A stretch of 64,000 nt of DNA from Octopus vulgaris (lineage: Eukaryota): the NCBI GenBank assembly GCA_951406725.2, contig OX597831.1, positions 47,926,001 through 47,990,000 on the forward strand, read 5' to 3'. The position numbers and the translations under genes are program-made. The notes beneath the pieces are model-generated. The model had not been told where the DNA came from and searched no databases. It was given only the letters and a program-made list of their open reading frames with translations. Positions 55,459 through 63,485 of this stretch are shown here, one piece after another (positions within the stretch are counted from its first letter, which is position 1; each line of letters starts with the position of its first letter).

Positions 55459-55651
55459 ACTTATAACACCTTTAATTTTCTCTGTCTTTTGTACTCTGTG
55501 TAAGTTGGACCGCTTAATACAAATATCTCTATATTCATACTTCAAAAATTCATCATCTGAAAGTCTCCACCTTTTGCTTTCTCTCATTTTGCATGTGTAT
55601 ATATATATATATATGTATGTATCAAAAGAAAAACAGGACACAAAGGATTTT

Positions 55652-55738
55652 GCGGTACATATGTTTCAGGCTTTATTGAACAACTTATATCAATGCATAA
55701 TTGATATAACAGGTAGATCAAAAGCCTTCTTCAGCCAC
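55652..55738 (-). ncRNA. Type-I hammerhead ribozyme, intact core
   Basis: GTGG-CTGAAGA-AGGCTTT...AAAGCCT-GAAAC-ATAT-GTA-CCGC. Confidence 0.82.
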
Positions 55739-55816
55739 ATACAATTACCACACCCAACATTACTTTTTCTCAAACCTGTTATAATGTGATACATGTCTTT
55801 GGTGTTATAATTGTAC

Positions 55817-55903
55817 GTGGCTGAAGAAGGCTTTTGAACTACCTGTTATGTCAATTATGCATTGATATAAGTTGTTCAATAAAGCCCGAAACATGTGTAC
55901 CGC
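55817..55903 (+). ncRNA. Type-I hammerhead ribozyme, intact core
   Basis: GTGG-CTGAAGA-AGGCTTT...AAAGCCC-GAAAC-ATGT-GTA-CCGC; predicted cut after A55899. Confidence 0.82.
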
Positions 55904-56005
55904 AAAATCCTTTGTGTCCTGTTTTTCTTTTGATACATATATCCTATCACTTATACCACTAGCTGGCATATACAGCTGCTTACAGTTATCAAGTATTCAC
56001 CCTGA

Positions 56006-57389: not shown

Positions 57390-57625
57390 ATTTTACTCTT
57401 TTACTTGTTTCAGTCATTTGACTGTGGCCATGATGGAGCACCGTCTATAGTCGAGTAAATCGACCCCAAGACTTATTCTTTGTAAGCCTAGTACTTGTTC
57501 TATCAGTCTCTTTTGCTGAACTGCTAAGTTACAGGGACATAAACACACCAGCATCGGTTGACAATCGATTTTGGGGGGCAAACACAGACACACAAACATA
57601 TACACACTCATACATACATATATAT

Positions 57626-57659
<34 letters not shown>

Positions 57660-57832
57660 ACACACACATATATACGACAGGCTTCTTTGAGTTTTCCTCT
57701 ACCAAATCCACTCACAAAGCTTTGGTTAGCCCGAGGCTATAGTAGAAGATACTTGCTCAAAGCACCACACAGTGGGACTGAACCTGGAACCATGTGGTTC
57801 TTAAACAACCTACTTACCACACAGCCACTCCT
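57390..57832 (-). mobile_element. SINE family A, full length
   Basis: As 9914-10299. Confidence 0.9.
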
Positions 57833-57840
57833 ACAAGGAA

Positions 57841-57992
57841 ATAATTTTATTCTCAAATGCAGGATAATGCTAATAATATCACATGAACAGGATGAACTAC
57901 CCACCTTTTGCACATTTATCTGCAAAATAGGGGTAGTTTATCCTGTTCATGCTATATTATTAGCATTATCCTGCATTTGAGAATAAAATTAT
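57841..57992. repeat. 72-bp-arm hairpin with 8-nt loop (probable short PLE fold-back)
   Basis: Outer 39 bp perfectly complementary; right tail CTCCTCATCT resembles other PLE tails here. Confidence 0.8.
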
Positions 57993-58952: not shown

Positions 58953-60063
58953 ATGCATATGTATGTATGTGCATATGTACATACATATATACATTTGTAT
59001 GTATTATGTACATACATATATACATCCATCTATGCATATATGCATACATACATACATGCGCGCACACACACACTAATGCCTTACTTTATATTTTGACTGT
59101 GAAATGGAACCTTCTTAAAAATGCATTAAATGTTGCAGCAATTTAACAGCCAAAATCAAGAAAAAGTATAATATAAAAATATTTTCACTGCTTTAGCATC
59201 CTTGGAATTTCCGCTTGTAATTTGAACCCACCTTACAAGGATCTCTCTCACTCCTTTAGTTGCTTTCACGAACGAAAGCAATCAATCTCACTTTGTTGGC
59301 TTCTACATTATGGAATGTTTTTTCCGATTATACGTCCGACCACTTGTGTAGCAATTTTGTAATTATGTAAAGTACAGTAATTTAGCAAAAAATATTGATT
59401 CAGTATTATTGTTATTTCTTCATGTCATGCAACTGTAAGCCAATATCATTAGATGCCAAAACGAAAGGTTACAAAAAGAGTAAAAATAAAATATAAAGAA
59501 AGGGTGTTGTTAAATAGTGATTAGGACTTAACACTGTTAACTTTAAAAATACTTAATGGATCAATCTTACGAAATTGATGTTGTCATTCAAAATTCCAAT
59601 GAGCATATGGCTCTAAACTAATATACTCATGTGGCAAATTCATGGAAAATATGGAGAAAATGTTGAATGCCTGGGCATTTTATGTTTCATAGTACCATTT
59701 TCCACACTCACAAGCTATTATGCAGCAAAAGACATCGAATCTATTTAATTAGTTGAAACAAGAATAAAATCAGGAAGTTATTCAAATTTTTTGTTAGTTT
59801 AAGTTCAAGAAACAGATTAATCTCCATTGTATTCAGATAACAAGGTGATCATCAAGAGCTAACATCTAGCTTTGCATTAGAATTTCAAGCACAAATGGAG
59901 TGTACATCATTTACATTATTTACATTCAACAGATATTTGTCCTCATCTTGTTTGTTGTTAACACGTTTTGGCTGATATACCCTCCAGCCTTCTTCAGGTG
60001 TCTTGGGGAAATTTCAAGGTATTTTTTGATGTTTTTATCATTATTATTATTGTTGTTAGTGTC

Positions 60064-60138
60064 CAGGTCACTGCTTGGAATCAAACTCAGAATCTTGGGG
60101 TTAGTAGCCCATGCTCTTAATCACTATGCCATATGCCC
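60064..60138 (-). promoter_or_regulatory. tRNA-derived Pol III promoter segment, left arm
   Basis: TGGCATAGTGA A-box-like, GAGTTTGATTCC B-box-like. Confidence 0.65.
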
Positions 60139-60539
60139 ATGGGCAATTATGGAGTGAATTTTGGGGCTTATATATCTAATATTTTTCTATCCTTCCTTAA
60201 TACCAGTTCCCATATGCTGCTCATATCTTCACTCGGTCTGCTTAGGAGGTTGTTGTGTCCTAGCATATGTGCTACTTCTTTTAGTTTTCATATTTTGGGT
60301 ATAGCTGATCATGTATGGAAAAATGGAGACCACCTCCTTCTGTGGGATGAAGTTAAACTAATAGTCAGAGAACACCACTGGAAAATACGCAAACTAAAAG
60401 AAGCAGCACATATGCTAGGACACAACAACCTCCTAAGCAGAACAAGTGCAGATATGAGCAGCATATGGGAACTGGTATTAAAGAAGGATAAAAAAATATT
60501 AGATTTATAAGTCCTAAAATTCATTCCATTATTGCCCAC

Positions 60540-60613
60540 GGGCATATGGCATAATGGTTAAGAGCATTGGCTACTAACCCCAAGATTCTGAGTTCAATTC
60601 CAAGCAGTGACCT
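60540..60613 (+). promoter_or_regulatory. tRNA-derived Pol III promoter segment, right arm
   Basis: TGGCATAATGG A box, GAGTTCAATTCC B box, CT-ACT-AA anticodon-like loop. Confidence 0.65.
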
Positions 60614-60664
60614 GGACGACAACGACAATAATAATAATAATAATGTTATTAGAAATTTCCCCAA

Positions 60665-60710
60665 AACACCAGATGAAGCCTGGAGGGTATATCAGCTGAA
60701 ACGTTGTGTT
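60665..60710 (+). ncRNA. Minimal hammerhead ribozyme, U4 mutated; mirror copy 59960-60002 on minus
   Basis: AACAC-CAGATGA-A-GCCTG..CAGCT-GAAAC-GTT-GTGTT; mirror has CTGAAGA-A-GGCTG..CAGCC but AAAAC; consensus of the two is intact. Confidence 0.7.
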
Positions 60711-60893
60711 AATAATGAACAAGATGAGGACAAATATCTGTTGAATGTACATAATTCCTCATCTCTTAAATATAGAACAAAATGGAGTGTATTAAGGAAG
60801 AAGGAAAATCTCTACCAAATCTAGTTTTTAATTTAAATAAATGTAGGATATTTTAGGATATTTAGATAAATGTAGGACATTTTAGAAACACTT

Positions 60894-61118
60894 TTAGATT
60901 TCAAGTCCCCGGTGGTATTTTTTCCTAATAACAATGTGAGGAAATCTTTAGTTGTTTTATACCTTTTAATTTTAATTTTTTTTAAATACACATTTTAGAA
61001 AGCAAGTGTTTCTAAAATGTGTATTTAAAAAAAAAATTAAAATTAAAAGGTATAAAACAACTAAAGATTTCCTCACATTGTTATTAGGAAAAAATACCAC
61101 CGGGGACTTGAAATCTAA
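60894..61118. repeat. Near-perfect palindrome with 108-bp arms and 7-nt spacer
   Basis: 60894-61001 vs 61009-61118; only a homopolymer length difference (T8 vs A10) seen. Confidence 0.92.
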
Positions 61119-62082
61119 GCGATTGCCTATTTATCATTCTGATACTCTAAGAGCAATCAACATCATCTTCAAATCTAGTTTACCTGATACTTGAAAATCT
61201 AACAGAAAAGCTTGGATTAAGCAGGATCTGCTTTTTGAATGGTTTGTTAAATATTTCTGCAGTGAAATGTTACTGTGAGAAAAATAATTACAAGCACAAG
61301 GAACTTCTGCTTTTGAACAATGTTCTCAGTCATCTCACAAAACTTAATTCACTCAGGATATGTGTACCATTGAATAAAAAACAACTTCAAAGGGCTTCAT
61401 GTTGTTTTTGTTCAAACAACAATTCTACCAATACAATATGTAGACCAGAGATTCATTTCCATTTTCAAGTCATATTTTAGAACTTTAAGCGAGTTGATTA
61501 CTGTGCACAGTCTATCAAAGAATTCTAGAAAATGTATATTATGAGAAATACAAAGCATATTGAAGATGTCTGAAGTAGCAGTTACATACACACACACACA
61601 CACACCCATTTCATAAGGATTTGGAAAACACCTTGTAAATGTATTTCATAGACAGAAACTGAAAGAAGCCCATCGTGTGTGTATGAGTGTGTCTGTGTGT
61701 GTGTGAGTATCTCCTTGTTTTGGCATTCTATGATAGTCGTAAATGAGTTTCACTGTCATACAAGCAGTGTTATTCATTTCCAATATTCTGTGCATGAACA
61801 CATCTGACCATGGGGAAATATTGCGTTGCTTGGAAACAGGTGAGCCATTGAATATCTACCACAATAAACGGTCTGATCAATGCAAGCATGGAAAAGAAAC
61901 AGTAAAATGATGATGATGAAGCAGTGAAATACAAATATAGTAAAGAAAGATAAAATTTATTGAGTGCTGGGAACAAGGACTACACTTATAAAGACATTAA
62001 CACTTTCGTGTTCAGGTTATTCTATCAAATGTAATGCATATTGCTTCACATTGTTTTGAATTAATCATGCATTATCTCATAT

Positions 62083-62428
62083 ACATTATTTACATTTGAT
62101 GTATATTTCTCCTCATCACAACATTTTGGCTGATATACCCTCTTGGGGAAATTTTGAACCTGGGTTCTCATTTTTAAGGTACTTTTCGATATTATTATTA
62201 TTATTATTATTCAGGTCACTGCCTGGAATCGAACTCAGAATCTCGGGGTTAGTAGCCCGCGCTCTTAACCACTACGCCATATATCCCTGGGCAATTATGG
62301 AGTAAATTTTAGGGCTTAGAAATCTACTATTTTCCTATCCTTCCTTAATACCGGTATTAAGGAAGGATAGGAAAATGTTAGATTGTAAATAATGTACATA
62401 ATTCCACATCTCTTAAATATAGAACTGT
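62083..62428. mobile_element. Second insertion of the tRNA-bearing Penelope fold-back family; right arm largely deleted
   Basis: TSD AT(T/A)ATCTCATAT (62071-82, 62429-40); central perfect palindrome 62329-62376; same 3' tail CATAATTCC.CATCTCTTAAATATAGAAC. Confidence 0.85.
62212..62287 (-). promoter_or_regulatory. Best-preserved tRNA-like Pol III segment
   Basis: TGGCGTAGTGGTTAAGAGCG...GAGTTCGATTCC canonical A and B boxes. Confidence 0.75.
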
Positions 62429-62677
62429 ATAATCTCATATCCTTGAGATTTCGATGATGTGATTGAGAGCCTGGATCTGGTCAGTTTGAACATAAAACAA
62501 ATGGAAAATTTTGGCCAGATATGATTGGTTTAAGTGCTAAAGTGTTAAGAAAGTTATCAGAACTACAAATGTCTTGTTCAGTTAGCCAAGAAGTATTCCA
62601 CCCCATCACAACAGCTAGTTTTAACAACAAAGATTCAGCTAAAGACCTCATGGAAGTAATATATGCTGTAGAGAGAT

Positions 62678-62895
62678 GGTGAGCTGGTAGAAACGTTAGC
62701 ACACTGGGTGAAATGTTTACCAGTATTTCGTCTGTCTTTACATTCTGAGTTCAAATTCTGCTGGGGTCGACTTTGCCTTTCATCCTTTCGGGGGCAATAA
62801 ATTAACTACCAGTTGTGTACTACGCAACTGGTAGTCGATCTAATCAACTGGCCCCCTCCCAAAATATTTTGGGCCTTGTGCCTAAAGTAGAAAAT
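62678..62895 (+). mobile_element. SINE family D variant with small internal inverted duplication (62804-62834)
   Basis: GGTGAGCTGGTAGAAACGTTAGC...GTCGACTTTGCCTTTCATCCTTTCGGGG. Confidence 0.85.
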
Positions 62896-63485
62896 ATGTG
62901 CTGTAGAGCAACTTTCAAAATAAATAAATAAATAAATAAATAAATAAATGAATTATTCAGATTTTGAATAAAGCATGACAATTAAAAGATCTTTAAATAT
63001 TTTGAAGGAAAAATGAAAGGTTTGTCAACAGGTAGAACAGTCATCTACTGATGCTTATTCTTCCTTTTAGATAAAGAAAAACCTAACACAACCAGTAGAA
63101 CACACACACATACACATGTACATATATATGGTATGAGGAAGGGCATCCAGATATAGAAAGCATGTTAAAACAGAGATGAGGGCTTTATGTAATCCTCCGC
63201 TTTGTATCCTATCAAATCTTCTAAATTATACCAGTATGGAAGATGGTTGTTAAATGATGATGATGTAATCCGTATGTATGTGTGTGTGAGTGTATGTACG
63301 TGTGTGTGTATGTGCTTAAAATTTATTCTTTTGTAATTTTCACTTCGTGCATAAACTAAAAATAAAACCATATATCTTTTATTGAATCAGATATAATTTT
63401 GTTCAAAGCACTTTTTTCTATATAAAGTGTGAATATTTTTGGATTAAATTACAAACAATTTCATTCAAAGATATTTTCCTCTCTC

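Follow-up and report, generated by a model that had tools for sequence, protein, structure and literature searches.

The genome of Octopus vulgaris carries an old family of Penelope/Poseidon elements in which a tRNA-derived head, with both internal promoter boxes, forms the 5' end of the element. The family is a real and well-defined variant of these elements, and its captured head is likely to be their internal promoter, with Pol III, judging from sequence features and the distribution of copy ends, probably the polymerase that reads it. A more tentative proposal, somewhat short of probable, is that Pol III makes the whole 2.9-kb coding RNA from this captured tRNA promoter, so that the element would combine a SINE head with a PLE body and have a coding strand purged of terminators.

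The stretch of DNA analyzed, referred to here as the window, comprises 64,000 nt of contig OX597831.1 (assembly GCA_951406725.2, positions 47,926,001–47,990,000, forward strand), and contains two insertions of the family. The first, at 59905–60779, consists of an inverted arm and a 5'-truncated arm lying between the two copies of a 12-bp target-site duplication (TSD; 59893–59904 and 60780–60791). The second (62083–62431, the 62-kb copy) is independent, being flanked by its own 9-bp TSD (62074–62082 and 62432–62440), and carries the same tRNA-like segment, as an earlier, sequence-only reading of this DNA had stated. Their features are as follows.

59893–59904, plus strand: left target-site duplication, 12 bp
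59905–60296, minus strand: inverted arm, with ORF end, tRNA-like head, (AAT)n, broken hammerhead and a short 3' end without the tail extension
Head of the inverted arm, minus strand: predicted start 60144; A box 60121–60131; B box 60077–60088
About 59961–60003, minus strand: broken hammerhead of the inverted arm
60297–60510, plus strand: last 70 codons and stop of the RT and GIY-YIG ORF, matching an Anolis Poseidon-type protein
60534–60539, plus strand: leader of 6 nt; family copies most often begin at 60534, the putative transcription start
60540–60612, plus strand: tRNA-derived head with decayed cloverleaf stems; A box 60547–60557; B box 60590–60601
60613–60650, plus strand: (AAT)n/(AAC)n tract
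60665–60710, plus strand: minimal type I hammerhead, mutated; predicted cut after 60705; equivalent to codons 11–25 of the family ORF
60711–60779, plus strand: remainder of the pLTR, which is the ORF start
60749–60779, plus strand: optional PLE tail, between two putative RT start sites (PMC11167929)
60780–60791, plus strand: right target-site duplication
62083–62355, minus strand: minus part of the second insertion, with a short ORF end, head, (AAT)n and a hammerhead whose core is deleted
Head of the second insertion, minus strand: start 62292; A box 62269–62279; B box 62225–62236
62356–62431, plus strand: right arm and tail of the second insertion

The order of stop codon, tRNA-like head, (AAT)n, hammerhead and tail given by the sequence-only reading holds, but the GIY-YIG motif that it placed before them is absent from the window, where only the C-terminal end of the endonuclease is found; the motif itself is present in other copies, outside the window. 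The translation of 60297–60510 is 25% identical to the Anolis protein (E 4e-06), and this piece gave no match in Pfam. In the right arm, the part of the (AAT)n/(AAC)n tract where other copies have their ORF start codon is missing, and start and cut are 172 nt apart, compared with about 188 nt in the majority sequence of the family. A very short upstream frame (Met-Ala-stop, 60546–60554) overlaps the A box, and its ATG is the only one ahead of the ORF start in the family majority. Elsewhere in the window there are near-perfect inverted repeats unrelated to the Penelope insertions (55613–55942, 57876–57957 and 60894–61118), and other repeats with a resemblance to octopus tRNA-type SINEs (57400–57830 and 62678–62900).

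The A and B boxes were scored against consensus patterns. In the 62-kb copy and the right arm both match exactly and are 45 nt apart; in the left arm each has one mismatch. When a well-kept copy was shuffled 20,000 times with its dinucleotides preserved, the two boxes at tRNA spacing never arose. Both boxes are kept in 95/177 units of the family. No T4 run occurs 3' of the A box in the right arm, left arm or 62-kb copy, and the absence of a TTTT terminator between the tRNA-like segment and the hammerhead thus extends to all three copies in the window. The tRNA fold of the head has decayed while the boxes stay perfect: the acceptor and T stems are poorly paired, ARAGORN found no tRNA genes in the window, and the Rfam tRNA model scored 12.5 bits on the 62-kb copy (cut-off 29) and detected nothing in the 59905–60779 insertion or the well-kept copy. 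The best copy of the head shares about 69% identity with tRNA-Arg genes of the Octopus genome, the closest donor matches being tRNA-Arg(TCG) and tRNA-Arg(TCT) among only 30 tRNA loci of 6–7 types.

Searches of the genome (2.8 Gb, 227 contigs) retrieved thousands of candidate copies. Among 30 copies selected by their ORF ends, 27 carry the head and 21 carry both head and hammerhead, confirming that the tRNA segment is a family trait and not a one-off SINE insertion. The order of the element is head, (AAT)n, ATG, hammerhead, tail, ORF, stop, 33 nt, and then the head again; in near-full-length copies the tail continues straight into the ORF. One full-length copy (L370) reads head, full ORF, head, so the tRNA segment is retained at both ends of an element with RT and endonuclease. 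Positions in the family are given on the family majority (ref), where the stop is at 1616, the leader at 1643 (window 60534), tRNA +1 at 1649, the A box at 1656, the B box at 1701, the ATG at 1761, the hammerhead core at 1795, the cut after 1830 and the end at 1914. The majority ORF (2508 nt, 835 aa) starts 118 nt past the leader and specifies an RT followed by a GIY-YIG endonuclease. A piece of a natural copy matches RVT_1 in Pfam (E 3e-11), and RT and GIY-YIG-type motifs are found in the upstream regions of other copies; the latter motif was recognized by eye, natural pieces giving no GIY-YIG match in Pfam. None of the copies scored has an unbroken ORF, the longest open frame being 569 aa, and with about 5% non-CpG divergence the family is old.

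In a quick tree the family is nested among 31 search hits, within a group of 21 (SH-aLRT 85) that includes P0017 of Anolis, and this group is sister to P0001-type proteins (support 100). By its likeness to P0017 and to PAc, the element from Anolis carolinensis, the family is assigned to the Penelope/Poseidon clade. The hallmarks of PLE copies (PMC8557442) are present, namely pLTRs, inverted 5' arms, an optional tail and a TSD. No DNA of the closest relatives, P0001–P0009, was found among viral contigs, and prokaryote genomes gave one weak, irrelevant match; the metagenome loci of relatives are short RT pieces. A second octopus PLE family (L298–L308, L374–L381), which falls beside P0029 in the tree, is much younger, with long copies 96–99% alike, open frames of about 1,000–1,200 codons and pLTRs of about 1.3 kb, in which a simple pattern search found no A/B boxes and no canonical hammerhead core.

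The 5' ends of family copies were mapped at 146 position-ordered loci of one contig (C1), 116 found by hammerhead patterns and 30 by a pattern within the head; de-duplication left 118 insertions, 97 of them hammerhead-sampled, among which a few local duplicates may remain. Of these 118 ends, 68 lie within ref 1643–1665, including 26 at 1643 and 10 at tRNA +1 (1649), and 18 lie further 5'. Among the 97 hammerhead-sampled insertions, 8 begin after (AAT)n, 15 in or beside it, 9 in the 3' part of the head, 50 at 1643–1665 and 15 further 5'. So, where an insertion extends as far as the head, it ends within 23 nt of it in 50 of 65 cases, with a one-base mode 13 nt before the A box. Pol III usually starts about 13 nt before this box. 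The (AAT)n tract, in or just after which 15 of the 97 begin, is often expanded or interrupted by other repeats (L034, L052, L085, L089, L215 and L239). Exact genome-wide matches number 655 for a motif about 55 nt upstream of the head, 3000 within the head, 2811 for a 29-mer of the hammerhead and 78 for the ORF start just past the tail, counts whose ratios are rough because motif degeneracy differs. Five 5' pLTRs reach the head and continue into the ORF; four start at the head and one is a tandem. In 4 of 30 loci (three plus one listed twice) a piece of the ORF start is joined straight to ref 1643/1644, directly at the first base of the head (L341, L349, L350 and L363/L364), and these joins are likely to be template jumps from the 5' end of the RNA.

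The peak at 1643 partly reflects the palindrome at the start of the head. Fold-backs on it account for 15 of the 26 modal ends, and since the script assigned fold-back junctions to 1643 the one-base peak is inflated. Such a pile-up could arise with no RNA end at the head at all, if RT on long tandem RNAs snapped back at the palindrome straddling the head start, and in keeping with this, ends also cluster modestly at a second palindrome close to the start codon. That control palindrome (5-bp arms, 2-nt loop) nevertheless collects only 6/97 ends, against 50/65 at the head; 11/26 modal ends are not classed as fold-backs, and template jumps land on the same base, so we hold this explanation to be improbable. 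The second peak, with 10/118 ends exactly at tRNA +1, suggests another, in which the tRNA-like piece is an RNase P processing signal and a cut at +1 frees the 5' end. Given that the main peak is 6 nt upstream and that the acceptor and T stems pair poorly, it is very unlikely that the end is made in this way, and RNase P may come in only secondarily, to process a Pol III transcript. The tRNA head is the 5' end of the element, and because most copies begin exactly there, use of a tRNA-type promoter is likely.

The sense strand of the majority ORF and pLTR contains no TTTT, so Pol III could read the whole 2.9-kb unit. Synonymous shuffles of the 2508-nt ORF gave an expectation of 2.9 T4 runs versus none observed (p = 0.028), although TTTT is only the 8th most depleted of the 256 4-mers. 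In 19 control ORFs, all of which have T4 runs, no T4 depletion was seen (all P >= 0.098); eight metagenome relatives have 2–9 T4 per kb and the second PLE family 1.8–5.9 per kb. Extended loci of this second family lack A and B boxes and have T5 runs (8/8), while decayed copies of the present family have 15 T4 and no T5 in 32.7 kb. The size of the effect depends on the codon usage assumed, as the expected T4 number is 1.8 with that of the second family (P0 = 0.14) and 7.8 with that of another control, and low Phe content is common to close relatives, that is, a trait of the subclade. The T4 test therefore establishes that the unit is readable by Pol III; that Pol III actually reads it is no more than suggested.

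RNA-seq data (three runs from 2026 and one contig set) gave a depth of 400–2,200 over the pLTR versus 1–19 at the ORF start; the libraries are bulk and of unknown strandedness, may come from a related species, and were read to about 6%. There is no pile-up of starts or ends in these data, both strands are equally deep, and 87–88% of aligned reads continue into unrelated sequence, so the signal is passive read-through. The perfect boxes over decayed stems, the start at a distance from the A box typical of Pol III, the absence of T4 from the whole unit and of a GTRAG splice donor from the pLTR majority (by a simple pattern test) all count against Pol II as the polymerase, acting from an internal promoter at the head with the tRNA piece a captured SINE head, either passive or aiding. 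We consider Pol II unlikely, though it retains some merit: the Penelope of D. virilis has a TATA-less internal promoter (PMC2377424), the absence of TTTT is only modestly significant, and a capped RNA would solve the problem of translation. With Pol III as the preferred polymerase translation is unexplained, since its RNA is uncapped.

The hammerhead was identified by family alignment, which reveals the core, stems I and II, an extra nucleotide before stem II and a palindromic helix III, matching the description of the minimal PLE hammerhead (PMC4209133). Rfam reported no hammerhead in the 62-kb copy, the 59905–60779 insertion or the well-kept copy, so the call rests on the core and stems of the alignment. 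As the sequence-only reading had recognized, the ribozymes of the window are mutated, and all three are broken: the right arm has changes in U4 and stem II, the left arm a changed G12 and a deletion, and the 62-kb copy has had its CUGAUGA core deleted. The catalytic core is kept in 89/165 units. The motif sits within the start of the ORF, and this layout looks conserved because relatives keep the peptide that spans it, including one that is 39% identical over the N-terminus; in P0007, P0035 and P0056 (about 40–50% identical) it reads TPD.G...PKR. Unconstrained cofolding gave no double hammerhead, and the monomer hammerhead fold was 1.4 kcal above the minimum; these folding models offer no support for hammerhead activity. 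Minimal PLE hammerheads have low activity in vitro and need dimers (PMC4209133), and that of the octopus family would be an ordinary example, predicted to require a dimer or protein help.

Among 182 units, 72 end at ref 1880–1892, 76 at 1905–1914 and only 2 near the cut site, with 156 ending at least 45 nt beyond it; measured from the ORF start, the two 3' ends lie at about 125 and 154 nt. The end of the template is not set by self-cleavage, because copies extend 50–85 nt past the cut, and the earlier suggestion of a self-cleaved RNA of about 165 nt as the mobile template is not supported. Solo tRNA-hammerhead units have indeed amplified: units running from head through hammerhead to tail, without the ORF, outnumber every other product. 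The two main haplotypes occur at similar ratios in short and in ORF-linked copies (28:45 and 16:25), so both come from the same masters. Only 3 of about 220 positions differ at p < 0.05 and none at p < 0.03; at least two of these are CpG sites, and the CpG differences shrank when tRNA-selected loci were removed. By their variants, the short head-to-tail copies are solo pLTRs; a separate SINE subfamily was rejected, and the SINE/retrozyme hybrid lineage once envisaged is not supported, for the same reason. A search for a free SINE made of the tRNA segment and (AAT)n and flanked by a TSD of its own found none among 30 head-sampled loci, of which 24 have the hammerhead or tail downstream and the other 6 lack a convincing TSD.

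One could still imagine a short Pol III RNA ended by the hammerhead, or a circular, retrozyme-like monomer, that is mobile as a SINE-like lineage. Head-to-tail units do make up the majority of copies, core and boxes survive in about half of the units as counted above, and a few head-to-tail tandems exist. We regard this as the least likely of the readings considered, given that 2/182 units end near the cut, that no diagnostic variants separate short from long copies, that neighboring copies are mostly inverted and not tandem, and that hammerhead mutants of PAc still insert normally (PMC11167929).

We propose that transcription would begin at a G located 13 nt 5' of the A box, and that the RNA would be copied uncut by the hammerhead. 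RT would start internally at two sites that define the 3' ends, as shown for PAc, whose two start sites fall within the beginning of the ORF and flank the tail (PMC11167929). RT starting in the 5' pLTR would run off the 5' end of the RNA after about 270 nt, giving solo pLTRs; at the free end, the cDNA would often fold back on the short palindrome or jump template, producing inverted arms. ORF-bearing copies would arise when RT started at the 3' pLTR or jumped. A full copy keeps its promoter, because the promoter is internal, and the protein would be translated either from uncapped RNA or from another copy's Pol II read-through transcript.

Retroelements that begin with internal Pol III boxes and whose RNA fold has decayed are already known: tRNA-derived SINEs, and Cassandra TRIMs, whose LTRs contain a 5S Pol III promoter. 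Both of these groups are non-autonomous, whereas the octopus boxes head their own 835-aa RT/endonuclease. The family resembles a SINE in that the element begins with A and B boxes spaced as in a tRNA, but it shows no non-autonomous lineage with its own masters, as the variants are the same and the head is on a full-length copy. The closest likeness is to PAc (Frangieh et al. 2024, PMC11167929), which has a single RT and GIY-YIG ORF, a hammerhead over the ORF start, two 3' ends defining the tail, inverted 5' arms and an uncut RNA template; in the accessible part of that paper no tRNA-derived head is described, and the promoter is 'likely in its pLTR'. The Penelope of D. virilis differs in its LINE-like promoter and 5' intron (PMC2377424), a spliceosomal intron that is common but not universal in PLEs and whose donor motif was not found in the octopus pLTR majority. 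Sm-alpha and Sj-alpha of Schistosoma similarly have a tRNA-derived Pol III-type promoter followed by a hammerhead, but are non-coding tandem units whose active hammerhead frees monomers (PMC6765202, PMC2770079); in the octopus family promoter and hammerhead together serve as the pLTR of a coding element, the ribozyme is of the minimal PLE type and the copies are not cut-to-cut monomers released from tandems (2/182 ends near the cut). Metazoan non-LTR retrozymes are likewise short hammerhead units, of 170–400 nt, with a proposed link to PLEs (Cervera and de la Pena 2020, PMC7229834; see also PMC11722881 and PMC6466107), but they are tandem, circularizing and non-autonomous, whereas the short octopus copies are solo pLTRs of an autonomous family, and their neighbors are mostly inverted. 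A 2026 octopus repeat annotation counts Penelope-like families, and its accessible text mentions neither hammerhead nor ribozyme, its supplement containing no sequences (PMC13282606). No PLE with a tRNA-derived promoter was found in the accessible literature, the available part of PMC8967140 adding nothing further on the subject; the family may already be annotated in repeat databases.

Pol III promoters usually mark short, non-coding mobile passengers. If this family is indeed an autonomous element run by Pol III, it would show that retrotransposons can change polymerase, and one would then have to ask how an uncapped RNA is translated. The family also offers a plausible route from a PLE pLTR to tRNA-plus-hammerhead repeats of the Sm-alpha type. 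Leaving the question of the polymerase aside, the sharp 5' end is a genomic read-out of the PLE mechanism, in which solo pLTRs would be run-off cDNAs from an internal RT start, followed by fold-back or a template jump.
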